From contig JAGCSI010000019.1 in assembly GCA_017964255.1 (NCBI GenBank), positions 8,286 through 72,285 of the forward strand: DNA of 64,000 nt, given 5' to 3'. Below the pieces are notes generated by a model. The model did not search any database and was not told the DNA's origin. It was given only the letters and a program-made list of their open reading frames with translations. This document shows positions 13,777 to 64,000 of this stretch, piece by piece. The position numbers were made by a program, and so were the translations under genes. Position 1 is the first letter of the stretch. The number at the start of each line of letters is the position of its first letter. This DNA is from Bacteroidales bacterium. Its GTDB lineage: Bacteria > Bacteroidota > Bacteroidia > Bacteroidales > WCHB1-69.

Positions 13777-13814
13777 AAAATTTCTCTTTTGAATTTAATA
13801 AAAAGAAAAAATAC

Positions 13815-13822
13815 TATCTTTG
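13815..13822 (+). promoter_or_regulatory. Candidate -7 box (TATCTTTG) for the TA pair
   Basis: Matches TAnnTTTG, 70 nt upstream of ATG 13892. Confidence 0.35.
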
Positions 13823-13891
13823 CAACGCAAACAAATTTGAGTCTTGCAATGTTGTCTGGCGTATGACAGGCGTATAAAAAAAGATAACAAT

Positions 13892-14095: not shown

Positions 14096-14366
14096 TATTA
14101 CTGCAACTGTTCAATTTGAAAAAGATGTCAAGCTTTCGAAGAAACGTGGGCTTGACATAAACCTGCTATTCCAGATAGTCGATAAATTAGCTCTTAATGA
14201 GCCATTGCCCGCAGAATATAAGGATCATGCCATGAAAGGAGAGTTTGCAGGAAAAAGGGAATGTCACATTATGCCCAACTGGCTACTTATTTACAAAAAA
14301 GAAGATACCTTACAGTTGCTGAAGTTAGTCAGAACAGGATCTCATGCGGATCTGTTTGGCAAATAA
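14085..14366 (+). CDS. Type II toxin, YafQ family (RelE/ParE superfamily mRNA interferase)
   Basis: 93 aa from MRYNITAT. HAMKGEFAGKRECHIMPNWLLIYKKEDTLQLLKLVRTGSHADLF matches the YafQ C-terminal signature. Confidence 0.8.
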   Translation: MRYNITATVQFEKDVKLSKKRGLDINLLFQIVDKLALNEPLPAEYKDHAMKGEFAGKRECHIMPNWLLIYKKEDTLQLLKLVRTGSHADLFGK

Positions 14367-14396
14367 ACAGGAGCCAAAACTATATCTGTTCACTAC

Positions 14397-14760
14397 CTTT
14401 ACCGATACACCATCACATCCCCCTCAATCTCGCTGGTGCTGGCGTTCACGACTTGGGGTTAGAGGTGAATTAATCAGTTCTTTATCCTTGTTGTCGGCTA
14501 TGACGACATGCCGAAGGCATGAGACGCGCCGTCAGGCGCAATTAACACCATACAAGCGGCGGAGCCGCGCAGTGTGGTGAGAACCGGGACTGTGTGTATA
14601 GAGCATATCGGAGATATGCGACATCATACCACCGTCTTGCATAGACTGTCGCATCTCTCCGAGATGCTTGTATAGCGAGAGTACTTCATTCACCACACTG
14701 CGCCTGACGGCTTGTATGGTGTTAATTGCACTTCGTGCGTAGCATCTCTCCCGAGATGCT
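14397..14760. repeat. R2 structured repeat, copy A (direct repeat of 16463-16824)
   Basis: Aligns along ~362 bp with copy B by eye. Begins with a ~50-bp copy of a gene 3' end. Contains long internal inverted repeats (gcaattaacaccatacaagc ... gcttgtatggtgttaattgc; catatcggagatatgcgaca ... tgtcgcatctctccgagatg). Confidence 0.85.
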
Positions 14761-14807
14761 TTGGTATGAAATCAAGGCCAAATGCTGTTTTATAAGAGAA
14801 TGATTAA

Positions 14808-14952
14808 ATCAGCCAAAACATATACTATAAACATAAATTTGGCTAAATAAGAATAATCAAGTCAGCCAAATTTTACAATAAAAACATATTTTTGGCTGAA
14901 TAAGTATATTTAATTCAGCCAAATCAAATATTTTTTATATATTTGCGGCTGA
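14808..14952. promoter_or_regulatory. Iteron-like 52-53 bp tandem repeat (about 2.5 copies) carrying TTTGGCTRA / TCAGCCAAA palindromes
   Basis: tcagccaaa at 14809, 14862 and 14915. tttggctaa/tttggctga at 14838 and 14891, and ttgcggctga at 14943. The last unit overlaps the -7 box at 14938-14945. Confidence 0.6.
14938..14945 (+). promoter_or_regulatory. Candidate -7 box (TATATTTG) for the ATPase gene
   Basis: Matches TAnnTTTG, 24 nt upstream of ATG 14969. Confidence 0.45.
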
Positions 14953-14968
14953 ATAAAATTATAGTGGT

Positions 14969-31600: not shown

Positions 31601-31724
31601 GTGGACAGGGCGTCGGGGTGCACGGATGAGGGGTGCATTGACCATACATTTTGTTGCTCAATGTGAGCAGCAAAAAAAATGATGGTAATAAATAAACTAT
31701 AATAAAACGTATAAATTTTGCCAT
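22635..31724 (-). CDS. Giant (3029 aa) T9SS type-B-sorted surface protein with dozens of Cys-paired Ig-like repeats
   Basis: Signal peptide. C-terminus FYVPNSFTPSNKDGINDYF...YSRWGELVF...WDG matches the gliding-motility-associated / T9SS type B CTD. ~75-80-aa repeats of the form C.GDS..L.ASG...Y.W......I.V.P..TT.Y.V......GC...D.I.V.V.P.P run through most of the protein. Confidence 0.9.
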   Translation of the reverse strand: MAKFIRFIIVYLLPSFFLLLTLSNKMYGQCTPHPCTPTPCPPPDSATIAAGDLRIHHFNSMLFRDSYLEYDTNGIPHITYFMGDTLRIQCGMIYRFYVEANGIYEWNTDISYGNVPTHGNDQLRTKITLFYDDFQTSAVVSDRAVNSTVPGNAAAGLSWRANYTGVVGIMVNRGDRYLNSEDFCACTPDTILLRFNQRRRADDDAYIVWGRYGVVRNLVCNDDNHFIYDSGTNSQQDDASGDYSNNENGYLVLYPGDLRSKLKIWGNSLMECGDTLFIYNGDITLDSTLVPYDTITGPGSHQLGNEDEPEFMSATPGQPITLRMQSDSTCTSGGFELQAKCCQTPGLPLNLYGYMNSDTTAFINWIPGEGNDLTYNYDIYTASDSTPIFSGSTIDTFQIINGLNPNECYFYTISVYSNCTNENATDSSTSLDVVYSNVFCYSYFVTLGDSVQDFIVMTDSVYIPSGAYIDSTNACGCAEPGTNTNIIIHETNQRVCYGDSFYFCYNFSINADIQPVQKRLVWQSPYILHIPNIELDSSYIVNDTNTYIMSIPGEYSSGCYTTGPITEDGFLMLTAYTEGHSVTRAIIHFHVDTLPDVTLWVNDMDTSWLITCEGEPLDLTAHNNLTYNWTALHDTLSSPITHQDEITIFTPTRNDRVYLRGTDDNGCVSYDTLKISINPMADLNYVSEYTLCYGDSLLMRASGLDHYIWQKIDTLRWDSTYTRVIQGINGSEICSTIRNINSENGIVLVQQTQPNLNRIDTFYVDELHDPGFRCPESYSGFSKRFKVTIIQTDHLIDFEYTTLQDGAADSLWVQPLQDADYRVLGTDSNGCRNRTNAFIHVSVLPKPKISDIYSTSYICEQDTAFFKVNMIDEETNYSFEWQEVGTDNIIGREAMFSIIPDSSCTYQLRVIHPNGCDTILYFPVHLYPQPEIEITAEPGVICPRSSSTLHASGATIVSWLWDDSTTTNIRIVEPQTAMEYFVTGIDGNGCSAKRSVPLTILPSPEHEILSNDSICANSSKTLVLSGRALNYQWHNPDVEVSVSGDTAIVTPSTTTVYTVSYENEYGCTDTTRVTIAVFEFPTPTLSPDITICRNDSTVLQASGGLFFLWDDPDHSTTDSIVVAPVDTTTYHVFVYDYIGCGSYGEVTVNVIPYFPMNIVASADSICPNSEVTFTAYGGSTFEWNQNPLFNSNSITMTSDSTTSETNLVVSLFVLNASTNCSMLIYDTVVVMPYPIINIVSEQDTLCVGDNTVLTVEGDARHFVWTTGDTNRSIQISPENSTVYQVNAYSDFNCMSSASHNIVVNGLPPVFDIELTDTSLCYDGTVNVTIYPSFSNMEYYWSYPGLGTSTPQFTYHPLQDIPYSYTDTLTVDLVNLYGCHRQGQALITVHPMPREEITAPSDLCVTDTIMMTLSGNYIYHWYQPITQEQSSNDTVWTTQLQNTTYRVKATTEYGCYLEISKTVETHPLPTVSIRSEHNSNYFCDNESYTLIASGAQDYVWSNGQVGDHLQITPPLSQNYQVIGTDEHGCRNSTSYSLNINPSPSIELRLSADTVCAGGNVTISAIGDFESIVWSNGSTTYSIVTPYLYQSQQYSVLVGNTAHNVSCYTRDTVDVIVMVVPTLSVQNSSSPICANDTGFIMVTGADSYEWVPNAILSGNSDGSATVHPVSSVQDHTEIFTVTGFLNEFGCNTSLQIPYIIHALPDINIAATSEGGHICLGDSLSLMASGGISYSWYEDGTTNSIGNVNVITISPTQTTDYTIQAMNPHGCYDTEVYTVTVHEHPEVNIIVSDSAICRGDTVQLNISSNGHQYAWDNFFSLSAINIANPLASPQTTCLYTVQVTDTTTHCKTVDSVKITVHQLPVLHSNAPHSMCLGDSLIIDMSGAVEYQWFNNDKTCLIYTGNPYPTLPEELPSARYQVVGTDEFGCKSDLPIEVMVYPLPQLDVNVSYPGFLCNNGSNFLGITVQSNIFSTNYQWSSVPADNTIVSDGQVTFVSPDTNTTYYIRGYYAIDGVVCSAIDTEFVQVFPVPVIHASVEPEIVCLHSEAELSATGARRYMWFLNNQMLGNSQTITHVAEQGQQYIVMGIDTNNCIGTDTLNIQVIDIMPQDSVRGPRSTCANVPVTVRTSGLNQCDWYPNVGLSEISDSSVTITLSESQTYTIRLTNEYGCVDSMSFHMNVYPVPELSMPHEVEICQGNDFSFRVSGASSYIWEDGSTNDFRTVTPDTTSVYTVTSYNQYHCQTIDSLKVIVFPMFDINIIASRDSFCLENNAITLMAYGAGDTYEWSTGSRDSVITVYPTESTVYTLTAINTSVNCVTTAEYPIVRMPDPVFNILPYQEYICKDDSIVLYVSNQNYTNILWSTLDTTDIIKVSPLVPTTYTATLTNVYGCHFQAERFVDVKPRPQVSILADETVVCLGEQIRLKAVGNAASYQWSTGHVGDSLIINQLTNGQYKVTAYTEFLCTASDSIDIAIYPIPDYSIGVPPQTLCVGDTAQISISGQNDWTWSPMTGIIYHDNNRTLVQPEVTTDYVGRIVNQYGCIDSVTVHINVYPPLPMQITPDTALCLGESLTLTVSGAWNYLWSNGETSSSFTITPTENTTYSVSSIDEHGCVTTKHTEVQVKPDFNLNLMVTKDTICVGDSTTLWYYGSADQYTWSTGSTGTHIVEHPATTSVYSLHAYNSQTGCAKNATTTIVVLPYPQILLQSPQLVCPNDTIHLAVSSIHPFSYQWSSNPDGSIISATDSAVITATPPQSSHYILTSSNQFCEVQDSILVETSELPGISINNIHDETCEGRNGSIGIDVQTDFPPVTLLWSNGYNTNENQIYNLSAGNYHVTATDQMGCSQTLYDITVDNITPPEIEITNIEAMLNMHDGAVTLQVNHFYGNYTIEWFADPYLTIRLDEYTNQLIVYGLDAGDYWILITDEACSTLQEVHIPRVNGGEGTFYVPNSFTPSNKDGINDYFSIYFSGEIQFQEIVIYSRWGELVFQSNDSHFKWDGSYNGKMTKYSIYNYVIFYTDGTGNENKKKGTVTVF

Positions 31725-51620: not shown

Positions 51621-52021
51621 TGAAACGACTACTGATTTTTTTGATTTTGCTGCTTCCGATAGCGGCAATGGCGCAGAGCGAACTGTACAAACACTATGCT
51701 TCGCGACAGGACCTTACCGTGGCGCAGGTGAACGGCTTCAAGCTGAATGACGCCGTGCGTGTGGACGTGGTGCTCGTCGTAGCCGACAATGAGTCCGCCT
51801 GGAACCAGCTCAAGGAGGAACTGGATATCCGTGGCGATGAGGGGGTCAACAGTTGGTTGGGAGAACTGAAACAACCTGCCAAGCGGACCAATTGGAACGG
51901 GAAAACGGTGTTGCGTGTGGTCGCTTCACATGCCCGTCGTACCGTGGGGTTCTACCGCCTCAATACCGAGGAACAGTACGATGCTTTACTGGATTATCAA
52001 CTTGAAAAAATGAAAAAATAG
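51620..52021 (+). CDS. Secreted protein, possibly DUF4252
   Basis: 133 aa from MKRLLIFLILLLPIAAMA. TAATG overlap with the upstream gene. The family call is a recollection of the typical ECF / DUF4252 context. Confidence 0.45.
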   Translation: MKRLLIFLILLLPIAAMAQSELYKHYASRQDLTVAQVNGFKLNDAVRVDVVLVVADNESAWNQLKEELDIRGDEGVNSWLGELKQPAKRTNWNGKTVLRVVASHARRTVGFYRLNTEEQYDALLDYQLEKMKK

Positions 52022-52023
52022 AG

Positions 52024-52872
52024 ATGAAAAAACAAGCATATATAAAAAGAACATTGAAAATTACCGCACTGATGGCGCTTGTGGTGATGTGTCTTGCGGC
52101 ATGTAAAAAACAGGAAACTAATGTTGATGGAGGTGGGGGAGATGGCAATCATAATAAAGTGGAACGTGCCATCATTTATACGGTGGGACACAGTGAAAAC
52201 CAACGGACTGTGGCCACCGAGGCAGAGTGGGATGCCCTGTTGGACCATCTTTGCGACCAAGCACAGAGTGGTAACGAGGTGATATTCTATAACATGCGTC
52301 CCACAAGCTGCCATACGGGGAAGAAAGTTCAGGCTCCTAAGAGTCCGACAACCATCAGCACCAGCAGCCGTGACGAAATCAAAGCCTGGATGAAAGAGAT
52401 GGAGGAGCAAGGACACACGGTAAAAGTTTCTTATGACAGTTCCACCGGTACTTGGACTGGTGTGGCTTATTCCACGATGGCACACCTGGCCACAGACAGT
52501 ATTATAGGTACATGGCATTTCAATAGTTTGATGACAAACCAAATAGCTCCAGATGGTCATCTTCTGGAAGGCGATCTCTATGTCCCTGAGGAAAACGGAG
52601 GCTCCATGTACTATACTTTCAATGATAACGGGTATTTGTTGCTGACGTTCAATGCCATGGACGGGACTGTCGCTACAGATAGCACAACTTGGACTCTTAC
52701 GGATGAGGGCAAGCTTTACAGCGATTTGCTGCCCAATAACGGTTATTGGGATGTGAATTGGATAACCATGAGCACCATGATTATCTCACGAACTGGCTTG
52801 GGTGTAGGCGACAATGACTTCTATTATCAGCTGCAATTCAACAGACAAAGAAAAAAAATATCGCAGCTGTAG
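52024..52872 (+). CDS. Hypothetical lipoprotein (282 aa)
   Basis: Signal plus lipobox LAACKK. No family recognised. Confidence 0.55.
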   Translation: MKKQAYIKRTLKITALMALVVMCLAACKKQETNVDGGGGDGNHNKVERAIIYTVGHSENQRTVATEAEWDALLDHLCDQAQSGNEVIFYNMRPTSCHTGKKVQAPKSPTTISTSSRDEIKAWMKEMEEQGHTVKVSYDSSTGTWTGVAYSTMAHLATDSIIGTWHFNSLMTNQIAPDGHLLEGDLYVPEENGGSMYYTFNDNGYLLLTFNAMDGTVATDSTTWTLTDEGKLYSDLLPNNGYWDVNWITMSTMIISRTGLGVGDNDFYYQLQFNRQRKKISQL

Positions 52873-52950
52873 TTTTTTGTCCTTTCTTTTCGTTCTTATG
52901 ACAGAAACATTCAAATTCATCAAATAATCAAATTAAAAAACAAAAACAGT

Positions 52951-53544
52951 ATGAAAAAAAGTATTTTATTGATCGCAGTAGCCGCTTTCGTGCTTTGCCT
53001 GTCCTCTTGTCAGAAAGAAAATGTTGTTCGTGAAGGAAACGATATTATCAATGGAGGTACCACTCCTACCACACGTGTGACGACTACCGCCGACCTTTCC
53101 GGTACCAATTGGACCGCTAATTTCTCTCTTGGTGATTTAGTTTACGCTATGACGGGCATGAGCCTCAATGACTATGGTTGCCAGTTCCCAGAAGGTTTTG
53201 ATACCAATATGGTTTATCACATCAATTTTGATCCTCAATTTGCACACATCACTTTCTCCGGAAACATCAGCATGATTAATGTTGCCGAAGTGGCAGGTGG
53301 ATATACTATGGATGAGATCCAGCAGATGGATTTGGTATATGCTTATAACGGTTCAACCCATACTGGTACTTTGACCGCTGTAGGTACCGACGAGAATGGC
53401 GCCCCCATCAACTATCAGATTGACTTCACTTATGATGACAATAACGACACGATTACCATTTATCTGCAATTTGCTAATGCCGAGAATGAAAATACTACGA
53501 TAAACTTCCCGTTGGTGTTCCATCGCGATGGCGCAGCTGCCTAA
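52951..53544 (+). CDS. Hypothetical lipoprotein (197 aa)
   Basis: Signal plus lipobox LSSCQK. No family recognised. Confidence 0.55.
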   Translation: MKKSILLIAVAAFVLCLSSCQKENVVREGNDIINGGTTPTTRVTTTADLSGTNWTANFSLGDLVYAMTGMSLNDYGCQFPEGFDTNMVYHINFDPQFAHITFSGNISMINVAEVAGGYTMDEIQQMDLVYAYNGSTHTGTLTAVGTDENGAPINYQIDFTYDDNNDTITIYLQFANAENENTTINFPLVFHRDGAAA

Positions 53545-53596
53545 TCATTCTCCGCTTCTCCTCTGAATAACTGAATTCAGAATATATATTCATAAG

Positions 53597-53626
53597 CACC
53601 CGCCTTGTTGCGGGTGTTTTTTTTTT
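53597..53626 (+). terminator. Rho-independent terminator
   Basis: cacccgc cttgtt gcgggtg followed by a T10 run. Confidence 0.8.
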
Positions 53627-53656
53627 ACTGTGCCATATTTTTTCATAGTAAATGCT

Positions 53657-53664
53657 TATCTTTG
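53657..53664 (+). promoter_or_regulatory. Candidate -7 box (TATCTTTG) for the WYL regulator
   Basis: Matches TAnnTTTG, 20 nt upstream of ATG 53684. Confidence 0.45.
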
Positions 53665-53683
53665 CAGCATAAAATTAAGCATT

Positions 53684-54613
53684 ATGGGTAAAAATCTGAT
53701 TAATAGGTATATATGGCTGATAGATACCATTTATCAAGCTGGTTCATCGGGGATTACACTCCGTGAGATTTCGGAAAAATGGGAAAGCAACTGGCGAATG
53801 TCTGGTAAGGAGAAGTATCCGAGACGCACTTTTATGAACCACAAAGAAGATATTTGGGACATCTTCGGCATTGAAATAGGCTGTCATAAGCACTCCAATT
53901 GCTACTATATTGTGGATAGCGGGGACATTTCCGACTCGTCGGGTTTTCGCAGGTGGATGTTCGAGACGTTAGCCGTAAACAACCATATTAACGAGAGTGC
54001 CCAGTTGCACGACCGTATCTTGCTGGAAGACAATCCTTCTGGTGGTGAGTTCCTATCTACCATCCTGGAGGCGATGCGAGACGGCAAGATGATAACTTTC
54101 GACTACAAACCTTTCTGGGCAGAAGGAGATCGAGTGTCAAGCTTGTTCCATGTGGAGCCATACGCCTTGAAGGTGTTCAAACGCCGCTGGTATCTGTTGG
54201 GCAAATATGGCAACTCCCCGCTGAAACTCTATTGTCTCGATCGCTTTCTGAATATCGACATCGAATTCGAAGACTTTACGATGCCCCAGGACTTCAACGC
54301 AAACGCCTATTTCTCCACCTGTTTCGGCATTATCCTTGGCGATGAAGAACCACAGAGTATCAAGTTAAAAGTGGCTGACTATCAGGCAAACTATCTTCGT
54401 TCGCTTCCTCTGCATCACTCACAGAAAGAGGAGAAACGCACCGATGAGCACACCATTTTCAGCTATTATCTGCGTCCCACATTTGACTTCGTACAAGAGT
54501 TGCTCTCCATGGGCGAAACCGTGGAAGTACTTGAGCCCGCCTCCCTACGTTCGGAGATGGAGCGGATTGGGAAAGAGATTGCGAAGAATCATAAAGGAAA
54601 GAGGAATGCATAG
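53684..54613 (+). CDS. WYL-domain transcriptional regulator (wHTH-WYL-WCX architecture)
   Basis: 309 aa from MGKNLINRYIWLID, with N-terminal ITLREISEKW and a WYL motif FKRRWYLLGKY. Confidence 0.8.
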   Translation: MGKNLINRYIWLIDTIYQAGSSGITLREISEKWESNWRMSGKEKYPRRTFMNHKEDIWDIFGIEIGCHKHSNCYYIVDSGDISDSSGFRRWMFETLAVNNHINESAQLHDRILLEDNPSGGEFLSTILEAMRDGKMITFDYKPFWAEGDRVSSLFHVEPYALKVFKRRWYLLGKYGNSPLKLYCLDRFLNIDIEFEDFTMPQDFNANAYFSTCFGIILGDEEPQSIKLKVADYQANYLRSLPLHHSQKEEKRTDEHTIFSYYLRPTFDFVQELLSMGETVEVLEPASLRSEMERIGKEIAKNHKGKRNA

Positions 54614-54628
54614 GTATATTTAATAATT

Positions 54629-55741
54629 TTATTCCGGTTTCTTCCACTTCACATTATTCCCGTAGATGGAAACCAACGCATTGAACGGCAGACTGTTGAT
54701 GGTTTCGATGGTCTTCGGTAGTTCGTTGATGATTTTTAGGAACTGCTCCATTTTTTCGTAACGGACGTGGAAGGTCAGGCACCGCCGGTTTTTGCACTTG
54801 ATTTTAAGCTCAATGCCAGCCGCCTTCCCACTGCGACAACCCTCATTTCCGTACCATTGGAACAAGGCATATTCCAGCGAAAGTTCCTGCATTTTGGTTT
54901 CCAGCAGGTTCTCCATCGTTTTTTTATTAATACTGCAGAGTTTTGTTCTCTTTATCGCTTCATCAGTAATCATACAAGTTTGATTGTACAGAGCTGGTAC
55001 GATTTCCGCCAATGCACGGACTCTCTCTACGGTCAATTCTCTGTTAGTGTAGCAATCAATCCCCTTGTATTCAATAAGGGCGCTGAACATGCGTCTTGTG
55101 TAGGAGATTTTCACTTCTCCGAGTTTACAGAAATAGTCGGTGCCATTCTCTTCTTTGCGGAAAGAACATCCTTGTCTTCGTAACTCTGATAGAATATTGT
55201 CATGCTGCCGGAATTCTTTCGGCCATGTTTGGATTTTGTGCTCTAGTATTTTTTCGAAAACTTGTTTCAAGATCCATCGTGAATCATTTGGTGATCTCGC
55301 AGTTAATTCCATGGCAAATCTTTCCCAGTTCTTCTTGAAATTCTGTTCGCACACATCATATACTTGTTGTTCAATGGAGTTCCACTCTTCAAACAGTTTG
55401 GGAAGTTTGGCATTATAGTCAAGCAGTGAAGACAATGCAAGTGGATAGTGTAAATGGAGACTTAAGTCCAAGTCTGCTTTTCCCTGTGAATTATAGACCA
55501 CAACATCGTAGATACCATAGTACTCCTCGCAAGTGACCTTTATATTAGAAAGCCGGAACTGGATTTTTAATGGATCATGGTTGGGGTTAGTGTAGGGAAT
55601 ATTGTTGGCAGGAAGCTCAACGGCCATTTTACTGCGACTCCTGGCATATATCCAATGGTTCAAGAAAAAATGTTCTTTTGCTTCGTGGATGTCGTCAGTA
55701 TGAATGCGTTTCAGTTTGTCAAAATAATTCTCGTTTTCCAT
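54629..55741 (-). CDS. Hypothetical protein (370 aa), last gene of the MoxR/VWA operon
   Basis: Long ORF 34 nt downstream of the VWA gene. No motif recognised. AT-rich. Confidence 0.6.
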   Translation of the reverse strand: MENENYFDKLKRIHTDDIHEAKEHFFLNHWIYARSRSKMAVELPANNIPYTNPNHDPLKIQFRLSNIKVTCEEYYGIYDVVVYNSQGKADLDLSLHLHYPLALSSLLDYNAKLPKLFEEWNSIEQQVYDVCEQNFKKNWERFAMELTARSPNDSRWILKQVFEKILEHKIQTWPKEFRQHDNILSELRRQGCSFRKEENGTDYFCKLGEVKISYTRRMFSALIEYKGIDCYTNRELTVERVRALAEIVPALYNQTCMITDEAIKRTKLCSINKKTMENLLETKMQELSLEYALFQWYGNEGCRSGKAAGIELKIKCKNRRCLTFHVRYEKMEQFLKIINELPKTIETINSLPFNALVSIYGNNVKWKKPE

Positions 55742-55775
55742 TTTTTTTATTTTTCAAAAATTATAATACACTTGT

Positions 55776-56981
55776 TTATTCTCGAATAAATGCTGCTTTT
55801 CCACTCTTTCGCATCCATTCCCGGTGCCGTTCGTAGTTTTGCTCACAGTCGCAAATCCAGAGCACTTTAGTTTGCATCGGTTGTGGTACTTTGGGTTCGG
55901 AGGCATGGCCGTCGGTGAAAATGATCATGCCGTCATAATGCGGGTGCTTCGCAATATAGTCGAACAGTATTTGGAAGTTTGTGCCGCCGCGCCCCTCAAT
56001 CTTCACCTCCTTTGGCGCTTTTTTGAGTGTGATGAGTTCCTTCAAACCCGCATCGAATGGCAGTACATAGATTGTTTCCACTCCGTATTTGAAAAAACGG
56101 GCAGTGGCCGAATAGAAGGTGGACAGTGCGTCTGAAGAGACAGAACCGCTCACATCCACGCATACTAAAATGTTGGATGCCAGCTCGTAACGACTTCCCA
56201 TCTGCTGAAAACCGCTGCGCCGGTTGGGCCTCATTCGTGTGAGCCGCCGCCTGCTGCATAGGATGCTGGTGTGGAAACTTCGCAGGATGGCCTTGTAGTT
56301 GAGTTTCACCTTGAGTGTGGCCACCACCATTTCCGCGAAATGTCCCGGAATGGTGCCCCACGACTGCGAGGCCTCCAATTTCCGTATCAGTTCGTTGGTC
56401 TCTTCCTGGGCCAGCATATCCTCCTCCCACAGTCCGCTATAATCGGCCCACCGCTGGTCACTCTTATAATCACTATCTTTGGGGCTCGGTCCTTCGTCAT
56501 TGTCGCCCTCTAGCGTTTGTTTGCCGTCAGAGGGAATCCAGCTATCATCCGAATTGTCTCCGCTTTTACCAATCAAGTTGTTCAGTTTCAATGCGTACCA
56601 CTCGAAGCTCTCTCCAATTGGAAGCTGAAATTCGTGCGCTTTCGGGCATTCGAAATGGCAGAGCCGATAGTTCTGGTCCACCACGAAATTTCCCGCAATG
56701 GCGATGGATTCCGGCTTACAGCACTCGGGTTGCCGTTCGTATGGGTGCTTAAGCAAGATATGCAAGCACTCCACCTTAAGATACTCTTCCAACGCCTCAT
56801 CACTTAACATCCCGGCTAAAGCAGGGTTATATTCTATACGCCGTTCGCCTGTGCGCATCACGCACTTCATTTGCTCGTTTTCTGACAGCAAGTGACTACA
56901 ATAGACGGCGAAGAAGGTAGGCTCTGTGAGCCACCAGCGCTCCGTAATGTGTGTAATCCTTTCTTTAATGCTATAACTCAT
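55776..56981 (-). CDS. DUF2201-type protein: N-terminal metallopeptidase-like domain plus VWA domain
   Basis: 401 aa. N-domain WWLTEPTFF...RIEYNP...VECLHILLKHPYER and a VWA MIDAS motif ILVCVDVSGSVS. Overlaps the MoxR gene by 11 nt. Confidence 0.75.
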   Translation of the reverse strand: MSYSIKERITHITERWWLTEPTFFAVYCSHLLSENEQMKCVMRTGERRIEYNPALAGMLSDEALEEYLKVECLHILLKHPYERQPECCKPESIAIAGNFVVDQNYRLCHFECPKAHEFQLPIGESFEWYALKLNNLIGKSGDNSDDSWIPSDGKQTLEGDNDEGPSPKDSDYKSDQRWADYSGLWEEDMLAQEETNELIRKLEASQSWGTIPGHFAEMVVATLKVKLNYKAILRSFHTSILCSRRRLTRMRPNRRSGFQQMGSRYELASNILVCVDVSGSVSSDALSTFYSATARFFKYGVETIYVLPFDAGLKELITLKKAPKEVKIEGRGGTNFQILFDYIAKHPHYDGMIIFTDGHASEPKVPQPMQTKVLWICDCEQNYERHREWMRKSGKAAFIRE

Positions 56982-58041
56982 TTACAAAACTCCTTATCTG
57001 GTGATAGAAATCAACGTTGCGCCCCATAATCAGGGAAATAGCCCTTGGATAATTTCCTGATTCAAAAACAGATACTAGATGCGCAAAGGCTTCTTTGCTC
57101 TTCTTGCCCCGCAGCATTCGCCAGTATTGGTCGAAATTGGCCACTATGGTGGCCTCCTCTTCAGCCTCCCATTCCTGCATGTCAAGGAAACGGAAAATAT
57201 CTTCGTTCAACGTTGACAATTCGTGTAGTTTGTAGCGGGCGAGGCGTGCTTGACAGGCGTCGTAGTTCAGCAGTATTTTCTTGGCAGATAGTTGGTTGAA
57301 TGATGTCAGGAATTGGTAGAAGGCGGCAGTGGCGGGTGCTCCAACGATACCCGTACACATAATCTTCAAATCCTCCATGTTGTTCTGCCCTTTGATGCAG
57401 TCCGACAGTTTTTTCCACGCCCGTCGGTCGGGAGTTTTAGTGAGACCTGCCGCCTCGTCGCCACTGTATTTTCCATCGAGCATGTCGGTGTGGCTTTGTA
57501 TGAACTGTACCACGCGCTCGTCAAGATGGTTTTGACTGGCCCAGCGTATCCACTCCTGCACCGAGGGACGGAACTCGTAGATGTTGAAACGCGACACGAG
57601 GGCGGGGTCGAGGTCGGTAAGCTGGTACTCATCGCCGTCATTTACGGCTGAAATCACACGGCTGCCTTCGGGAAGTGCATGTCCTGCAAGAGTACGGTTA
57701 AGGGCAAGTTCCATAATGGTCTGCAGGATTTCGGGACGGGCGCGGTTCAACTCGTCCAAAAACAGCACCACGGGCTTTCCATCGACAGGGAACCAATAGG
57801 GTGGCATAAATTCGGTGATGCCGGTTTCTTCGTTCAGGCGCGGCAGCCCGATAAGGTCGCCGGGGTCGCTCATCTGTCCGAGGAAGAGCGCCACCACGGG
57901 GATTCCCTTGTCGGCGAAATAGTGGGTGAGGATTTCTGATTTGCCGATGCCGTGTTTGCCCACGAGCATGATGTTCTGGCTGGAGGGCATCACGCTTAAA
58001 ATATTCTCTAATTGTTTGATGTTGATTTTGCTGAGATTCAT
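56971..58041 (-). CDS. MoxR-like AAA+ ATPase (AAA_5)
   Basis: 356 aa with Walker A GKHGIGKSE, Walker B VVLFLDELNRA, a sensor region SAVN and a DPALVSRF arginine-finger region. Confidence 0.8.
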   Translation of the reverse strand: MNLSKINIKQLENILSVMPSSQNIMLVGKHGIGKSEILTHYFADKGIPVVALFLGQMSDPGDLIGLPRLNEETGITEFMPPYWFPVDGKPVVLFLDELNRARPEILQTIMELALNRTLAGHALPEGSRVISAVNDGDEYQLTDLDPALVSRFNIYEFRPSVQEWIRWASQNHLDERVVQFIQSHTDMLDGKYSGDEAAGLTKTPDRRAWKKLSDCIKGQNNMEDLKIMCTGIVGAPATAAFYQFLTSFNQLSAKKILLNYDACQARLARYKLHELSTLNEDIFRFLDMQEWEAEEEATIVANFDQYWRMLRGKKSKEAFAHLVSVFESGNYPRAISLIMGRNVDFYHQIRSFVNEL

Positions 58042-58042
58042 C

Positions 58043-58414
58043 TTATTGTATGTTAATGGTTTCTATCAAATTCTCCAGATTCTGCAACTTTTTCTCCAAG
58101 TATGCACCATTCCGCTTTTGATGCAGCGGGTCCAGTTTGTCGAGAGTGTTGTAGAATTCGCGGCTGTGGTTGTGATGAATCAGGTGGCATAGTTCGTGGA
58201 AAATCACATGGCGGATGCTATCAGTGGATATGTCGCCCAACAATACATTGAATGTGATTTGTCCTGAAGAAGAGGTTCTTCCGCCGATATGCGGCGCAAG
58301 CTTCTTCACTTCCACGCTGGGATAAGGAACGGTTGGATGTCGAGCCGAAAAAATCGGCCAGCAGTAGCTGAATTCGTTCAGGATTCTTCCTTTAGGGTTA
58401 TCGTTTTGCGGCAT
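58043..58414 (-). CDS. DUF45/YgjP-like (M48-related) zinc metallopeptidase, short form
   Basis: 123 aa from MPQNDNPKG (ATG 58414) with HELCHLIHHNHSREFYNTL. Its stop is 1 nt from the MoxR start. Confidence 0.7.
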   Translation of the reverse strand: MPQNDNPKGRILNEFSYCWPIFSARHPTVPYPSVEVKKLAPHIGGRTSSSGQITFNVLLGDISTDSIRHVIFHELCHLIHHNHSREFYNTLDKLDPLHQKRNGAYLEKKLQNLENLIETINIQ

Positions 58415-58440
58415 ACTCCATTTGGTTTTGAATGATGCTG

Positions 58441-58462
58441 CAAAAATAACGCACAGGTGTGC
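58441..58462 (-). promoter_or_regulatory. Promoter-operator module copy 1 (TATTTTTG -7 box plus GCACA-N2-TGTGC palindrome)
   Basis: The minus strand reads ttgcacacctgtgcgttatttttgcag, 27 nt upstream of ATG 58414. Near-identical to 59538-59562. Confidence 0.5.
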
Positions 58463-58511
58463 AAGAATGTGGCATTGTACTGCCGTAATGTCTTTCGCAA
58501 CCGTTACGCCA

Positions 58512-59510
58512 TCATTCATAGAACATCACCGAAAACCGAAGCTCTTTACCAAGTCGATTGTCGGTGTTCACCATATAGCCGACCTGTCCTTTGGCCATCT
58601 TCGACACCCGACCTATCAGTCGGTGATCATCTTGGGTGAAAGGGTAATCGGGAGAAACGGTTATGACCATCATCAGGTTTTCAAAATGCTTTCCCACAAA
58701 AGCATTGTATTTGTCTATCAAATCCAGCATCCAATGGGTGCGCTGTGAGGTATCGCCTGCGTAGGATTGATAAGAATATTTGCTGCCGTGTTGCGACAGG
58801 AAGAGTTGTTCTATTGCTTCCGGAGTCATGCCGTAATTCTCTGAGGCTGGGGTCAGACAATGCTCCGCAAATTCACCTACAATACCGATACGCCGATCAT
58901 ATTCTTGTTGAATAGCCTCACGACTGTACCATCTTTTCTTACGCAAATGACCATGGTGTTCCGTTGGCTCCGACTGTATTCGTTCCATAGATTCTTTCAC
59001 GTCTTTTCGGAAAGAGGGAATGGTCAACAACGCTTTTTTTGAGGGAATATGGATGCCCTGTTGAATCAATTTGGACATCACCCGTTTTGTGCGTATCCTT
59101 TGGAGATCCTTGTCGTTCAGATTTCGTGCGTATCCATAGAGCTGCTCGGCGGTTTTGCTCCGCTGCTCTTTTGTGTAGCCGTATAAGGAGCTGTGCCACA
59201 AACAGCAGGTGGCGATTTCCTCAGGAGTTGCCTTGATTTCGGGTTCCACGACAATCTCTCTGGACAAACTTGCTTCCCATAAATCACCCTCCAAAGGAAA
59301 AGCCTGGAGTGCAGCAAAACCTCCCGATTTGTTTTTTGACACCACGATGTTTGGGTGGTCGGAGTCCTCTTTTCGGGGGGCAAGAAGTCGAAGCATGTCA
59401 TAATGCGTTTTGCACCACGGGAGGTCATCAGTGGGAAAGCTGAAATAAAAAGGGATATAGGGTAGGAGCTCGTCAAAAGTGACTTGGTGTAATAATTCGC
59501 TGTAAGTCAT
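58512..59510 (-). CDS. Hypothetical protein (332 aa), first gene of the operon
   Basis: Long ORF with its own promoter module. No motif recognised. Confidence 0.6.
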   Translation of the reverse strand: MTYSELLHQVTFDELLPYIPFYFSFPTDDLPWCKTHYDMLRLLAPRKEDSDHPNIVVSKNKSGGFAALQAFPLEGDLWEASLSREIVVEPEIKATPEEIATCCLWHSSLYGYTKEQRSKTAEQLYGYARNLNDKDLQRIRTKRVMSKLIQQGIHIPSKKALLTIPSFRKDVKESMERIQSEPTEHHGHLRKKRWYSREAIQQEYDRRIGIVGEFAEHCLTPASENYGMTPEAIEQLFLSQHGSKYSYQSYAGDTSQRTHWMLDLIDKYNAFVGKHFENLMMVITVSPDYPFTQDDHRLIGRVSKMAKGQVGYMVNTDNRLGKELRFSVMFYE

Positions 59511-59537
59511 AAGGCCGTTTTGTTTGGATTACAGCGG

Positions 59538-59562
59538 CAAAAATAGCGCACAGGTGTGCAAA
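59538..59562 (-). promoter_or_regulatory. Promoter-operator module copy 2
   Basis: The minus strand reads tttgcacacctgtgcgctatttttgcc, 28 nt upstream of ATG 59510. Confidence 0.5.
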
Positions 59563-59604
59563 AATGTGGCATTGTAGGGTGCAGCATTGTAAGGCTGTCG
59601 CAAT

Positions 59605-59633
59605 GTAGGGCTGTCTCAATGCGGCAGCCCTAC
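59605..59633 (-). terminator. Stem-loop downstream of the PLD nuclease gene
   Basis: gtagggctg ... cagccctac is a 9-bp stem, 10 nt after the stop. Confidence 0.5.
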
Positions 59634-59642
59634 AGTTGTGGA

Positions 59643-60158
59643 TTAAACAATCGGATCTGGGCACACGTCTCTCCGTTGGCACTTCTCGCACTCGCTGCCG
59701 CGCCACACTTTGTCGAACTCCTCGATGGCGGCAGCCACGATGGCGGGTTCATCGGAAAGGATTCCCGCCTCGAAGTTGCGGCGGTGGGGCGATTTCATCC
59801 CCATTCCCGCACCCGTGAGGTTAGCGCTGCCCACATAGCAGACCGTTTGGTCGATGACGATGATCTTGAAGTGTACCCGCGGACACATCACCCGTTCCAG
59901 CATCTTGGCCAATCGCGGGTAGCGGTCGAAGTCGGCACGGAAGATCGGCCCCGGCTCCTTCGCGTGGATCAGCCGCACCTCCACGCCCTTCCCCAGCAGT
60001 TCCGCCAGCACCCCGAGAAACGGCTTCTCGATTTTCCCTTGCAACACATACAGGTCTTTGATGTCGGCGGTACCAATCCACAACGAGTGCTTGGCCTTCA
60101 TCGCGAGGTCAAGGACGGTGGTGTAGTGGGAGGAGTCGGTGATGAGGGTGGTGGGCAT
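59643..60158 (-). CDS. Single-HKD phospholipase D superfamily nuclease (Nuc/BfiI-like)
   Basis: 171 aa with VHFKIIVIDQTVCYVGSANLTGAG (HxK..D..GSxN). Confidence 0.8.
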   Translation of the reverse strand: MPTTLITDSSHYTTVLDLAMKAKHSLWIGTADIKDLYVLQGKIEKPFLGVLAELLGKGVEVRLIHAKEPGPIFRADFDRYPRLAKMLERVMCPRVHFKIIVIDQTVCYVGSANLTGAGMGMKSPHRRNFEAGILSDEPAIVAAAIEEFDKVWRGSECEKCQRRDVCPDPIV

Positions 60159-60242: not shown

Positions 60243-61490
60243 TTACTGAATCCTGTCGCACCAATAGCAAGGCATCATGCGAATGGGTGGTTCATCGGAA
60301 AAATAGTTGAGATTAGCCACATAGCAATGGATGTCGGCATTGTCAAAGGCAGCGGCGAGGTTGGCTACAGCTGGTATTTTCAGTTTTTTTGTATTGCTTT
60401 GGAACTTACATTCGACCAATACTTTACGAGAAGGGCCATCCATCACAAAATCCACTTCGGTACCGTTCAGCGTGCGATAGAACTGTAGTGTTTCGCCTGC
60501 ATTCCGCTTGCGCCAAAGTTCAAGCATCACTTCGTTCTCAAAAATCGCTCCTTTGTCGGCCCGGAAATCCACCTCGTTGAAACTGTTATATACCATATTG
60601 CGTAGTCCGAGGTCATAGAAATAGACTTTCTTCATCTGTGAGATGGTCTTCCTTTTATTTACAGACATCGGTTCAATCATCCGGATAATATACATTTGCT
60701 GCAAAAGGTGGATATAGTTTTCGCATACGGCATATTTCAATCCACACTCTCTGCTCAGTTCGTTGATATTTACCAAATTGCCGATTTGCGCTGCCAAAAG
60801 TCTGATTAAGCGTGTAAAGCCAACAAAATGCTCGTTCCGAATGTATTTGCGCACATCATTGAGGAGATAGGTTTGGTATATATCGTTGATGAGTGCTATT
60901 TTGTCGGTGTTTTTGTCGGCCAAGGCCACACGCGGCAGTCCTCCAAAAATCAAATATTCGCGATAGGTATTCAGCAGTGGGGTCATCAAAGTCTCGTCCG
61001 CGACAGTGGCGTTTTGTTGCAAATGCCAAAGCTTTGGGTCCTTAAAGAGCAGATATTCGGCGAACGAGAGAGAAAGCACCTCGATGACGCGCACTCGTCC
61101 CGCCATTGTTTCCTCCACGCGCTGAAGTATGTCAAGACTGGAACTTCCCGTGCATAAAATCCGCAGGTTTTCATGCTTGTCGCACAGCAGTTTGAGCAGG
61201 GTGGAGATGTTTTCCACATACTGGAATTCATCGATGAGAAGCAAGCCGTCAAAGTTGGGGTTGAGCCAGATGCGCAGATATTCCTCCACGGTGCTCAGTT
61301 TGTCGAAAAGGGCAGCCACTTCTGGATCCTGCCCGAACAAATGCAGTGTAGGTACTTGGGCTTTTTCCGCGAAACTGTTCATAATGGTGGTTTTGCCCAC
61401 TTGTCGCGCGCCGATGAGCACCACGATAGGCACATAGCGAAAAGCATCGTGAATGCTTTGCTGATATTGGTTCCTTTCAATGATTGCCAT
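60243..61490 (-). CDS. AAA ATPase, AAA_14 plus DUF4143 type
   Basis: 415 aa from MAIIERNQYQ (ATG 61490) with Walker A GARQVGKTT and Walker B LLLIDEFQY. The C-terminal half resembles DUF4143. Confidence 0.75.
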   Translation of the reverse strand: MAIIERNQYQQSIHDAFRYVPIVVLIGARQVGKTTIMNSFAEKAQVPTLHLFGQDPEVAALFDKLSTVEEYLRIWLNPNFDGLLLIDEFQYVENISTLLKLLCDKHENLRILCTGSSSLDILQRVEETMAGRVRVIEVLSLSFAEYLLFKDPKLWHLQQNATVADETLMTPLLNTYREYLIFGGLPRVALADKNTDKIALINDIYQTYLLNDVRKYIRNEHFVGFTRLIRLLAAQIGNLVNINELSRECGLKYAVCENYIHLLQQMYIIRMIEPMSVNKRKTISQMKKVYFYDLGLRNMVYNSFNEVDFRADKGAIFENEVMLELWRKRNAGETLQFYRTLNGTEVDFVMDGPSRKVLVECKFQSNTKKLKIPAVANLAAAFDNADIHCYVANLNYFSDEPPIRMMPCYWCDRIQ

Positions 61491-61504
61491 ATTGAAATTT
61501 TTGG

Positions 61505-61530
61505 CAAATATACGGAATTTTTCAAATATA
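61505..61530 (-). promoter_or_regulatory. Two candidate -7 boxes (TATATTTG twice) for the DUF4143 ATPase gene
   Basis: caaatata at 61505-61512 and 61523-61530 on the plus strand. Confidence 0.4.
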
Positions 61531-61551
61531 CATAAATTTTCGTATGAATTT

Positions 61552-61659
61552 TTATGTGATAGTGTCGACGGCGCCAATCCACAGCGACCGCTTGGCCTTC
61601 ATCGCGAGGTCAAGCACGGTGGTGTAGTGGGAGGAGTCGGTGATGAGGGTGGTGGGCAT
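61552..61659 (-). pseudogene. Displaced 5' fragment of the PLD nuclease gene (35 codons then stop)
   Basis: Encodes MPTTLITDSSHYTTVLDLAMKAKRSLWIGAVDTIT-stop. Positions 61564-61659 match 60063-60158 with 7 mismatches in 96 by my count. Confidence 0.7.
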
Positions 61660-61689
61660 GGGAACTATTTCAACTGTCAATCAAAATAC

Positions 61690-62076
61690 TTATTTAGCAA
61701 GTAATTCAACAATATCGTTATAAATAGAATTAGGTGACTCATGGGAAATTAATCTCCTATCTGTTTCTTTTAAGATATTTATCTCATCTTTACAATCTTT
61801 GACAACAATTGCAACAATACGATTTAGTTTCTCAGAATCAGGACTGTAGCCCCTTGATATCATTTGCATGACACATTGGTGATATAAATTAACCAAAGAT
61901 TTCCCGTATGCGAATCCACTTAAAACAATAAAGACAGGAACATCGTATTCGCGATATTCTCGTCCATTGTGGACATACATATTATCATTATCCTCTGAAA
62001 AAAGGAATTGCATTTTAGTCATTGCTGATTTAGCGATGGCAATGTAAATATCTTCTTTTTCGATGTATATTCCCAT
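61690..62076 (-). CDS. Hypothetical protein (128 aa) between the GmrSD-like and PLD genes
   Basis: ORF starts 12 nt after the GmrSD-like stop. No motif recognised. AT-rich. Confidence 0.55.
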   Translation of the reverse strand: MGIYIEKEDIYIAIAKSAMTKMQFLFSEDNDNMYVHNGREYREYDVPVFIVLSGFAYGKSLVNLYHQCVMQMISRGYSPDSEKLNRIVAIVVKDCKDEINILKETDRRLISHESPNSIYNDIVELLAK

Positions 62077-62088
62077 AAATATCGAATA

Positions 62089-64000
62089 TTATTCCAAATT
62101 GGTTTCAGGATTCAGTCCAAACATTTTCAAGAAACTTTTATAAATATTTACTGATCGAGTGATGATGGCTTTAGCATGAAATTTGACATATTCTTCATCA
62201 TCATTCTTTATATTCTTGTGCTTGGCATCCAATCGTTTCCAATACTCTAGATCGTTTTCGCAGATAAAAAAATCCTCATTGGTTTTATCAAAACGCTCTG
62301 CTGGCGATAAATTGTTGTTTTCGCTTCTATTGTCAGTTAATGACATAGCACGGAAATTTCCGATGCGGTTTTCCCATGTTCTGGTGCGTGGGTCAATATA
62401 CCATTGGCCATACACCCAACTATTGGGATAGATATGGTCCCAATCCCATGGTGTGTTTGTGTCTTCAAGGTCGTCCAATTGGTTAAAATCTTCAAATGTA
62501 CGATTGATATAGTCTCTTTGAGCCAATAATATTAAGGATTTGTCTCTAGAGCCTAATAATTTCCACAAAAAGTTTCTCCACGCTCCTAAGATTCTATCTT
62601 GATATTGCTCATCTGTAAGATTCTCTGATCGTGGAAGTGACAACTCCCAAATTTGCCAAATATCGCTACAATCAGGCATGTTGGGACTGATGTCGTGGTT
62701 TTCTTCAGAACTTTTGAGACGTTCTTCCAAGAATGTCAATAATTGTTCCGGTTTTATCAGCGGATATTGTCTAATCCAATCTTTATTGTCGAAATACTTG
62801 TCACTCCAAAAGTCTGGTTCTAAAACCTTATTCCAATTTTCTCGTACATAATAGTCAAAATCGTTTCCAAACCAATGGTTCCTGTATAGACGTGAGGCAA
62901 TCTCCCTTTTCCTCGTTTCGTCAATCTGCACTCCTTCGTTTTCAAATAGCCAGTGCAACAGTAACAAGAAGCCATTAGGTGACTCTCGAATATATTTCTT
63001 CACAACCACATCCGGAACATTCCCATATTTAAGAATATTAATGGCACACTTGATTTTTTCCTTTATAGGGCTGGAAAGATTATCCCCTATTTTATCTTTT
63101 AATTTTTTTATGAATTCTTCATCTTGAACATGTTTTCTGAACTGAGCCAATGATAATCCCGAAACAAAACTGTTGCTGGAAAGTATTAAACGAGATGTGA
63201 GAGTAATTATTCGAGAAGGTGGAATAATGTTCATTCCAATGCAATCCACAAGATTCTTTACCTCAGGACATGTTGCTTTAAACATAGAATACATCAACTC
63301 TTCGCCTTCAATCTTGGTCCCCTGAGAATTGAGACGAACAAACAATGTTGATTCGTCAGGAGATGAATCTGTTTTGTCTATAAGCAATTCTTCAGGAAGA
63401 ACGATAGTAGGTATCATTGTTGGCAGCACCCTGCCTTCTATTGTCTCAAGAAGCGAAGAAAAAAACTCGGAGCCAACTAAAGATTCTAGCATCGTGAAAT
63501 AGTCTTCACTTTCTGTCATACTTGAAGTACGGAACGCTTCAGGAATGTTATCCTTGCATTTTTCGATTAACCATTTGATGTCGTGATTATATCTCACAGT
63601 TTCCAGCAAGAAGCATAGTGGTATGGGGCAAGTGGCATCGTAAGGGATTCGCTGTTTGGGCAGAAGTTTCGTATAATTCGTATAAAATGACTGTCCGAAC
63701 AGCTTTGCATATTGAGTTGATGCAGCCCGTCTATATGGAACCGATAATATATTTTCGTTGTGCTGAAGTTGATATCCCCAAGGGTGCGATCGAGTTACGA
63801 CGCGGAAAACAAATTCTTGTGTGTCGGTTTTCTTCCTCGGATTAACATCAATCCAAACAGTTGGAAGATTGTTGGCATTCCCGATATGATCCTTGTCTTT
63901 TACCCACGGATTATAAAAACCCAAAGCGATGGATGTAGCACGCTGTTGTCCGTCAAGCAGCATCAAGTTTTCACCTTCACGCGATAACAACATTGCGCCA
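62089..64000 (-). CDS. GmrSD-like type IV restriction enzyme (DUF262 plus DUF1524), 5' end beyond the window
   Basis: LLDGQQRATSI (DUF262 DGQQR) lies near the window edge with the frame open to base 64000. The C-terminal WDWDHIYPNSW ... NRIGNFRAMSLTDNRSENN is a His-Me/DUF1524-like motif. Confidence 0.8.
   Translation of the reverse strand, partial: GAMLLSREGENLMLLDGQQRATSIALGFYNPWVKDKDHIGNANNLPTVWIDVNPRKKTDTQEFVFRVVTRSHPWGYQLQHNENILSVPYRRAASTQYAKLFGQSFYTNYTKLLPKQRIPYDATCPIPLCFLLETVRYNHDIKWLIEKCKDNIPEAFRTSSMTESEDYFTMLESLVGSEFFSSLLETIEGRVLPTMIPTIVLPEELLIDKTDSSPDESTLFVRLNSQGTKIEGEELMYSMFKATCPEVKNLVDCIGMNIIPPSRIITLTSRLILSSNSFVSGLSLAQFRKHVQDEEFIKKLKDKIGDNLSSPIKEKIKCAINILKYGNVPDVVVKKYIRESPNGFLLLLHWLFENEGVQIDETRKREIASRLYRNHWFGNDFDYYVRENWNKVLEPDFWSDKYFDNKDWIRQYPLIKPEQLLTFLEERLKSSEENHDISPNMPDCSDIWQIWELSLPRSENLTDEQYQDRILGAWRNFLWKLLGSRDKSLILLAQRDYINRTFEDFNQLDDLEDTNTPWDWDHIYPNSWVYGQWYIDPRTRTWENRIGNFRAMSLTDNRSENNNLSPAERFDKTNEDFFICENDLEYWKRLDAKHKNIKNDDEEYVKFHAKAIITRSVNIYKSFLKMFGLNPETNLE

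Follow-up and report, generated by a model that had tools for sequence, protein, structure and literature searches.

Pairs of MoxR-type AAA+ ATPases and von Willebrand factor A (vWA) proteins that are accompanied by a third conserved component were predicted to act as threshold switches of conflict systems (PMC7159879). These MoxR-vWA ternary systems, of which VMAP, inactive STAND (iSTAND), FtsH and beta-propeller types were described, are conflict systems predicted by comparative genomics, and the MoxR protein of the VMAP type bears an N-terminal extension with WxhapG and PsWRxa motifs (PMC7159879). The MoxR-VWA pairs characterised so far serve in the maturation of, or metal insertion into, client enzymes (PMC9976466, PMC13036017), and jumbo phages encode a MoxR-vWA pair in which the vWA protein is fused to an N-terminal metallopeptidase and for which a role in virion assembly or processing was proposed (PMC7824862). 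Here we describe a locus of this general kind in a metagenome-assembled genome of an uncultured Bacteroidales bacterium (assembly GCA_017964255.1, contig JAGCSI010000019.1, positions 8,286 to 72,285 of the forward strand; this whole stretch of 64,000 nucleotides (nt) is referred to as the window). It holds a cassette of four genes, encoding a MoxR ATPase, a VWA protein, a DUF45 zincin and a protein that we call X, and we put the chances at about even that the region is a conflict or defence system with a MoxR/VWA-gated protease logic. The cassette genes are as follows:

54629..55741, minus strand: X, 370 amino acids (aa), no family match
55776..56981, minus strand: VWA protein, DUF2201_N plus DUF2201 (Pfam)
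56971..58041, minus strand: MoxR-type AAA+ ATPase, AAA_5 (Pfam)
58043..58414 (open reading frame open to 58519), minus strand: DUF45/YgjP-like (WLM/SprT-like) small zincin (Pfam)

These four open reading frames (ORFs), a fifth minus-strand ORF encoding a 332-aa protein and a convergent ORF encoding a WYL-domain protein lie where an initial annotation, made by a model from the sequence, had placed them. The details it had read from the letters were likewise found, i.e., the motifs HELCHLIHHNH (DUF45), GKHGIGKS and FLDELNRA (MoxR) and DVSGSVS (VWA), legible in the translations, and the spacings (DUF45 and MoxR 1 nt apart, MoxR and VWA overlapping by 11 nt, 34 nt from VWA to the 370-aa gene, and convergent stops separated by 15 nt). 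Pfam bore out all of the domain assignments and was silent on both the 332-aa and the 370-aa proteins, in which no family had been recognised. The view that the gene set falls outside the named defence systems also held: the five operon proteins had zero matches to models of PADLOC (PADLOC-DB v2.0.0) and NCBIfam, the only PADLOC matches being those of the WYL protein and of the neighbouring PLD and DUF4143 proteins, and no published description of the set was found in the literature searched.

Gene contexts were retrieved for homologues of X, the 332-aa protein and the VWA protein, and 104 cellular and 80 viral loci were annotated with phmmer and hidden Markov models (HMMs); retrieved loci holding homologues are given as L-numbers, with positions in each locus' own numbering. 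DUF45, MoxR, VWA and an X-type protein co-occur in 15 distinct contexts (type A), in the gene orders DUF45-(small X-like ORF)-MoxR-VWA-X and MoxR-DUF45-VWA-X, and 60 loci are DUF45-less (type B). Thus, of the five genes that had been taken for one operonic unit, four do travel together, but the fifth, the 332-aa gene, is found in 2 of the 15 DUF45-containing contexts and is a repeat-flanked insertion. This distribution points to a functional unit of four genes, consisting of a ternary core (MoxR, VWA and X) and the DUF45 protease.

The genes found around type-A cassettes include GmrSD, DUF4143 (PDC-S01), PLD, RNase T-like, RhuM/Fic, AbiEii and PDDEXK_4 genes. Three kinds of neighbour were more frequent within 10 kb of type-A than of type-B loci, namely PLD (9/15 versus 3/60), WYL (7/15 versus 3/60) and RNase T (7/15 versus 2/60), in a comparison that used phmmer queries from the window and phylogenetically related loci; these contrasts persisted when at least 10 kb of total flank was required. 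The PLD nuclease is the cassette's most frequent neighbour, lies directly upstream of DUF45 in L017, and is a candidate effector or a co-resident gene. The subfamily of the 370-aa X is very rare: a search of 185,579 species genomes yielded 2 loci, and a set of 1.84 billion representative proteins contains 16 clusters of it. Taken together with cargo that differs between near-identical strains (see below), these results show that the cassette is accessory and rare, and uphold the proposal that it sits in a defence-type island.

X as the third component

No match to X was found in Pfam, PADLOC, NCBIfam or PHROG, and a profile search against PDB sequences returned nothing. Its AlphaFold2 (AF2) model (pLDDT, a per-residue confidence score, 84) is built of three consecutive units in which a beta-meander leads into a long helix; internal repeats within X were not significant by hhalign, and the three-module view derives from the AF2 secondary structure. 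Comparison of this fold with the PDB gave nothing significant (best E 0.02, with template modelling (TM) scores below 0.15), and comparison with BFVD gave weak, low-TM matches (best viral E 3.8e-4, TM 0.16). Readings of X as a PUR/Whirly-like or an RnlA-like protein were unsupported, with no usable fold match for either.

The conservation of X is unevenly distributed along its length. Its C-terminal module is near-invariant, the protein ending in ...YGNNVKWKKPE, and compared with the window copy the last 62 aa are 87-92% identical, while the N-terminal 235 aa are 30-58% identical; the corresponding values for MoxR and VWA are 89-93% and 84-93%. Moreover, identity changes abruptly from block to block (in the homologue P0007 it is 100% at residues 1-30, 30-57% at residues 31-270 and 83-100% beyond), a discontinuity that implies recombination between alleles. 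The N-terminal modules are thus mosaic and fast-evolving, and X is the hypervariable component of the system.

In the distant loci L019 and L021, the protein downstream of VWA has only the C-terminal ~130 residues in common with X (hhalign probability 86-92%). Iterating an HMM of the X module retrieved ORFs of 127-400 aa in 74 of the scanned loci, and in every locus mapped these ORFs directly adjoin the MoxR-VWA pair, the scan having turned up no X-module protein elsewhere. Among them are proteins of ~241 aa encoded upstream of MoxR, which we accepted as X-module relatives because their iterated-HMM matches adjoin MoxR-VWA pairs; aligned directly with the X C-terminal module by hhalign they gave no match, and their link to X is seen through the iterated HMM alone, where profile drift is possible. 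X and nine related or neighbouring proteins had no significant Pfam match, the VMAP families included, even at E values of up to 1, and one X-module member had a BspA-type leucine-rich repeat match in its N-terminal part, below the Pfam cut-off. On these sequence comparisons, X appears to found a previously unannotated family of third components beside MoxR-VWA pairs.

The X module also occurs in other arrangements. ORFs of 116-143 aa located between DUF45 and MoxR correspond to the X C-terminal module alone (L008 7219-7569; L011 7102-7533; L027 282-647); the window has no such small ORF at this position. In L011-L013 (~6700-16000), DUF45, a small X-like ORF, MoxR, VWA, X and a 188-aa gene are followed by a second MoxR-VWA-X set. 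In one DUF45-less subtype, a ~590-aa classical AAA (PF00004) protein with a possible N-terminal winged helix-turn-helix is followed by the ~241-aa X-module protein, MoxR and VWA (genes upstream of MoxR in L041, 6323-8853, and in L044, L055, L057, L063, L065, L071 and L074). A classical AAA protein of the same kind is encoded ~10 kb from the window's operon (L001 1-228).

The MoxR-VWA pair, its phage relatives and the DUF45 zincin

The VWA protein (Pfam DUF2201_N at 3.9e-11 and DUF2201 at 1.1e-13) is composed of an N-terminal zincin-like domain without HExxH, a short acidic linker, a basic RLTRMRPNRRSGF motif and a VWA domain whose metal ion-dependent adhesion site (MIDAS) motif is DVSGS. Across the cellular VWA proteins, the low-complexity acidic linker is highly variable in length, while the globular parts and the basic RLTRMRPNRRSGF motif ahead of the VWA domain are conserved. 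All VWA homologues keep the MIDAS motif DxSxS, including 97 of the 97 cellular ones; HExxH in the N-terminal domain, on the other hand, is found in 0 of the 97 cellular Bacteroidales homologues versus 71 of the 79 viral homologues, the former site reading VECLHILLKH in the window and KHELLHIAFGH in viral proteins. The zincin domain fused to the cellular VWA would accordingly be catalytically dead, judging from its motif.

In the MoxR protein, Walker A (GKHGIGKS) begins at about residue 28 and is accompanied by Walker B (FLDELNRA), and its gene adjoins the VWA gene in nearly all loci. Its best matches among PDB sequences are midasin AAA domains, and a weak CobS-like match was also obtained. An McrB-type identity (McrB being also AAA_5) was ruled out by the VWA partner, the midasin/CobS-like matches and the lack of an McrC. 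The partners also differ from those in the Bacteroides Bat/MoxR aerotolerance operon, which was rejected on that ground.

Both proteins of the pair have relatives in phages. VWA matches phrog_1314 at 1e-42 and MoxR matches phrog_1297 at 2.5e-51; the VWA family is large (5348 matches), with relatives encoded on more than 550 viral contig stretches, and MoxR relatives are present in 517 phage records at 22-27% identity. Overall, phage homologues of the pair are 22-34% identical to the cellular ones. A tblastn search with VWA against GenBank phages gave no match at 1e-5, and against plasmids one weak match. The pair belongs to the DUF2201 lineage, which is abundant in phages.

This abundance, and the virion-assembly role proposed for the phage pair (PMC7824862), would be expected if the cassette were a remnant or cargo of a phage or mobile element, i.e., an assembly or processing chaperone, or a counter-defence function, serving that element. 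The phage homologues, however, are the distant and mostly HExxH-bearing proteins just described, whereas the cellular copies have all lost this motif, and plasmid relatives are nearly absent. Moreover, DUF45, X, PLD and WYL genes are missing from the 80 viral loci apart from L105; no phage structural gene, integrase or tRNA was recognised in the window, where the flanks of the cassette are chromosomal, nor among the loci examined. We therefore regard this explanation as distinctly unlikely.

The pair could alternatively be a housekeeping chaperone that matures or metallates one client enzyme, as in NorQD, CbbQO, CoxDE, RavA-ViaA and CobST. This is the established role of the characterised MoxR-VWA pairs (PMC9976466, PMC13036017), and the weak CobS-like match and the position of one context, L011-L013, among housekeeping genes would be in line with it. 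Yet no conserved client enzyme gene was found beside the cassette across the mapped loci, where the neighbours vary; the cassette is very rare and patchy, its presence differing between near-identical strains, and a hypervariable, recombining partner such as X is unexpected for an enzyme-maturation factor. Of the explanations weighed here, we hold this one to be the least probable.

Unlike the VWA-fused domain, the separate DUF45 protein (Pfam YgjP-like at 4.5e-17 and WLM at 1.7e-6) has an intact HExxH with the downstream third metal ligand (HELCHLIHHNH), and HExxH..H is intact in 13 of the 14 unique DUF45 homologues. DUF45 is thus the putative catalytic protease of the cassette. Its start is most likely at 58414, giving a protein of 123 aa, since independent gene calls and the homologues in L017 and L021 use the 123-aa form. 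With this start, a 97-nt spacer separates DUF45 from the 332-aa gene, and the spacer contains the second copy of a promoter-like element, indicating that the 332-aa gene is not tightly coupled to the other four.

A distant MoxR-VWA pair (37% identity) was observed in L022-L024 (~1-16000), with a 1624-aa SACS/helicase protein on one side and a UvrD-RNase T fusion on the other. These loci also hold an Eco57I/ResIII enzyme, an SLFN/AlbA_2 protein and a ScoMcrA-type SBD protein, and represent another defence-type setting with different partners.

Accessory genes and island surroundings

Upstream of DUF45, the minus strand carries the 332-aa gene between two copies of the promoter-like element:

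58418..58479, minus strand: promoter-like element copy 2 (62-nt direct repeat), directly upstream of DUF45
58512..59510, minus strand: 332-aa accessory protein (AF2/Foldseek)
59515..59609, minus strand: promoter-like element copy 1 plus tandem motifs, upstream of the 332-aa gene

The 62-nt direct repeat that brackets the gene (58418-58479 and 59515-59576, 84% identical) carries a Bacteroidetes -7-type box, TATTTTTG; the consensus of the Bacteroidetes promoter -7 element is TAnnTTTG. The repeats are thus putative promoters. In L017 the element is single-copy and lies directly between PLD and DUF45; this single copy and the flanking repeats of the window imply that the 332-aa gene was inserted as a cassette together with a promoter copy of its own, and is a separately acquired accessory. 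Three tandem CCYTACAWTGC motifs (59569-59609, minus strand, 15-16 bp spacing) lie upstream of, and overlap, promoter-like copy 1. The window has no other such cluster, and the number of motifs counted over its whole length (9 versus 3.8 expected) is not significant; the triplet is a possible operator. A 15-nt inverted repeat (59604-59634) adjoins the triplet.

The 332-aa protein itself had no Pfam match, although DUF6557 weakly matches 14 of 23 members of its family. The top 50 Foldseek matches of its AF2 model (pLDDT 88.6) in the PDB are all FtsZ, TubZ or CetZ (E about 1e-4, about 140 aligned columns). The match probably falls in the C-terminal half, which resembles helix H7 and the FtsZ C-terminal domain, and the N-terminal half does not look like a GTPase domain in the model. 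A profile search of the family against PDB sequences gave nothing, and hhalign against an approximate sequence of E. coli FtsZ gave a non-significant E of 0.29; the suggestion of an FtsZ-like fold comes from Foldseek. Proteins of cytoskeletal type were also seen near other type-A cassettes, namely an MreB-like 281-aa protein directly upstream of DUF45 in L008 (5974-6819), an MreB/actin-like protein of about 408 aa in L019 (1-960) and a 159-aa tubulin/FtsZ GTPase-like protein in L021 (13669-14148). Cytoskeletal-fold accessories are a recurrent feature of these cassettes, in parallel with the FtsZ-like fold suggested for the 332-aa protein.

The remaining features of the island are:

53684..54613, plus strand: WYL+WCX protein (Pfam), convergent with X
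59643..60158, minus strand: single-HKD PLD-family nuclease, DrmC/Nuc-like (Pfam PLDc_2 at 2e-15; PADLOC DrmC and MkoB)
60243..61577, minus strand: DUF4143/AAA_14 ATPase (Pfam; PADLOC candidate PDC-S01)
62089..63993+, minus strand: GmrSD-type restriction enzyme, cut by the window end
within 60243..63993, minus strand: 128-aa ORF, island context

The WYL gene (Pfam WYL and WCX; PADLOC WYL at 4e-31) marks the edge of the island. Two other loci, L190 and L193, lack the operon but have the 197-aa flanking gene in identical form and, at the same site, a WYL gene of 95% identity. Their DNA homology to the window (L190 1-6456 and L193 1-4504, compared with 52000-54602) ends at ~54602, the 3' end of WYL, beyond which the cargo is a 227-aa gene, PDDEXK_4 and RhuM-Fic in L190 and RhuM alone in L193. 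Such differing cargo at one site implies a cargo-swapping hotspot and an accessory cassette, and the WYL 3' end seems to behave as a recombination breakpoint for the exchange of island cargo. The WYL gene, being kept without the operon, appears to belong to the conserved island edge and not to the operon. Its position and orientation relative to the operon vary across loci, though in L017 and L027 it is again tightly convergent. WYL, taken for a regulator in the initial annotation, is recurrent beside the cassette (7 of 15 contexts) but apparently not dedicated to it, and is possibly an island-level regulator. The stops of WYL and X are 15 nt apart in the window (54613-54629) and 12 nt apart in L017; because this gap is too short for a terminator, the two transcripts probably overlap in antisense.

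On the other side of the operon, the PLD, DUF4143 and GmrSD neighbours are present as claimed, according to Pfam, PADLOC and the gene calls. A 97-nt direct repeat, 93% identical, was observed at 60062-60158 and 61563-61659: one copy forms the start of the PLD gene, with its ATG, and the second lies just upstream of the DUF4143 gene. With the PLD 5' end duplicated in this way, DUF4143 looks like a single-gene cassette inserted between repeats, like the 332-aa gene, and the insertion looks like one of Campbell type, by homologous recombination. The remainder of the window is ordinary chromosome (NrdD, transporters, a type IX secretion system (T9SS) adhesin). The adhesin, encoded by a 3029-aa ORF (22635-31724, minus strand), combines an Ig_7 domain with a CHU_C type IX secretion signal; it is a surface protein of a sort ordinary for Bacteroidota and is unconnected with the cassette.

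The compactness of the operon and its residence in an island with AbiEii and Fic/RhuM-type genes raise another explanation, namely a selfish module of addiction or abortive type, for instance a protease-controlled counterpart of toxin-antitoxin systems, that stabilises the island. Toxin-antitoxin systems commonly combine a protease with a labile partner. However, no toxin domain could be recognised, and a MoxR-VWA machine with a three-module hypervariable X is more elaborate than the known addiction modules. An addiction module would be hard to tell from abortive-infection defence; we consider it very unlikely.

Proposed mechanism and comparison with known systems

Based on these results, we propose how a MoxR/VWA-gated protease might operate in conflict; the individual steps are far less certain than the reading of the region as a conflict or defence system. 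The C-terminal module or tail of X would dock on the MIDAS site of VWA or on MoxR, and X would keep the complex off while acting, through its variable modules, as the sensor or specificity subunit for an invader protein. Binding of the invader to X would then trigger ATP-driven remodelling by MoxR, transmitted through VWA, that releases or activates the DUF45 protease. DUF45 in turn could cleave a target in the invader or the host and possibly set free co-resident nucleases of PLD or RNase T type, with the outcome that propagation of the phage or mobile element is blocked, by immunity or by abortive infection.

Several points weigh against this interpretation. The sensor role of X is suggested by its evolutionary pattern, the fold matches being uninformative. 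Outside Bacteroidales, the genes closest to the MoxR-VWA pair are found in phages, and their products are the proposed virion-assembly helpers (PMC7824862). Furthermore, the enrichment of PLD, WYL and RNase T may reflect one shared type of island and not functional coupling, and in L011-L013 the flanking genes are of housekeeping type and none could be recognised as a defence gene.

A bolder form of the defence interpretation, which we consider unlikely, is that a phage morphogenesis chaperone was domesticated as an immune receptor, in which the dead protease domain would serve as bait or scaffold, X would provide specificity and DUF45 would be the trigger that fires the nucleases. If true, the cassette would represent the first anti-phage system built on MoxR-VWA, operating by a guard-like logic and introducing a protein fold family not seen before.

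The cassette matters in several respects. The contrast between a live protease domain in phages and a dead one in cells suggests a route by which a viral assembly chaperone could be exapted into immunity. The MoxR-vWA ternary systems form a large, purely predicted class of which we found no experimentally characterised member, and the X module adds an unannotated family that marks MoxR-VWA systems in the loci examined. The cassette is small (four genes, about 3.8 kb), with clear catalytic residues for mutation at Walker A/B, MIDAS and HExxH, and belongs to a gut/rumen lineage in which defence systems have been little mapped.

Compared with the regulators BrxR and CapW, the WYL protein shares the WYL and WCX architecture and recurs beside defence genes; unlike them, it is convergent with and downstream of the operon, and is kept in strains without it. 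The MoxR-VWA pair resembles NorQ/NorD, RavA/ViaA, CbbQ/CbbO, CobS/CobT and midasin/Rea1 in combining an AAA_5 ring with a MIDAS-containing VWA partner, and resembles midasin further in the acidic low-complexity linker ahead of the MIDAS domain. In contrast to NorQD, RavA-ViaA, CbbQO and CoxDE, it has no conserved client enzyme gene beside it, and is instead part of an accessory island set in which a protease and a hypervariable partner are added. With the phage pair (PHROG 1297/1314) it shares the same two families, AAA_5 adjoining DUF2201_N plus DUF2201; the cellular clade differs in that HExxH was lost, X and DUF45 were gained, and the genes lie in a defence island and not in a phage genome.

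The closest parallel is with the ternary systems (Kaur et al. 2020). As in these, a MoxR AAA+ gene lies beside a gene for a MIDAS-bearing vWA protein (here AAA_5 and DUF2201, with their overlapping ends), the system-specific third protein has a conserved C-terminal domain and variable N-terminal parts, a peptidase is associated, and the non-ATPase components evolve fast (30-58% identity in the X N-terminus versus 89-93% in MoxR). In the cassette this fast evolution concerns the X N-terminus and the length of the VWA linker, the globular parts of VWA being conserved. The cassette differs in that its MoxR lacks the N-terminal WxhapG/PsWRxa extension of the VMAP type, its vWA protein has an N-terminal dead zincin of DUF2201_N type instead of a C-terminal effector array, its protease is encoded by a separate DUF45 gene, and its host belongs to Bacteroidales and not to a multicellular lineage. 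In its pair and its ternary logic the locus is closest to these predicted systems, but it belongs to the DUF2201 lineage and to none of the VMAP, iSTAND, FtsH or beta-propeller types: X is not a VMAP (VMAP-C) protein, an inactive STAND, an FtsH-type AAA+ or a beta-propeller, yet it holds the same positional role, and in the DUF45-less relatives the order X-MoxR-VWA mirrors VMAP-MoxR-vWA.

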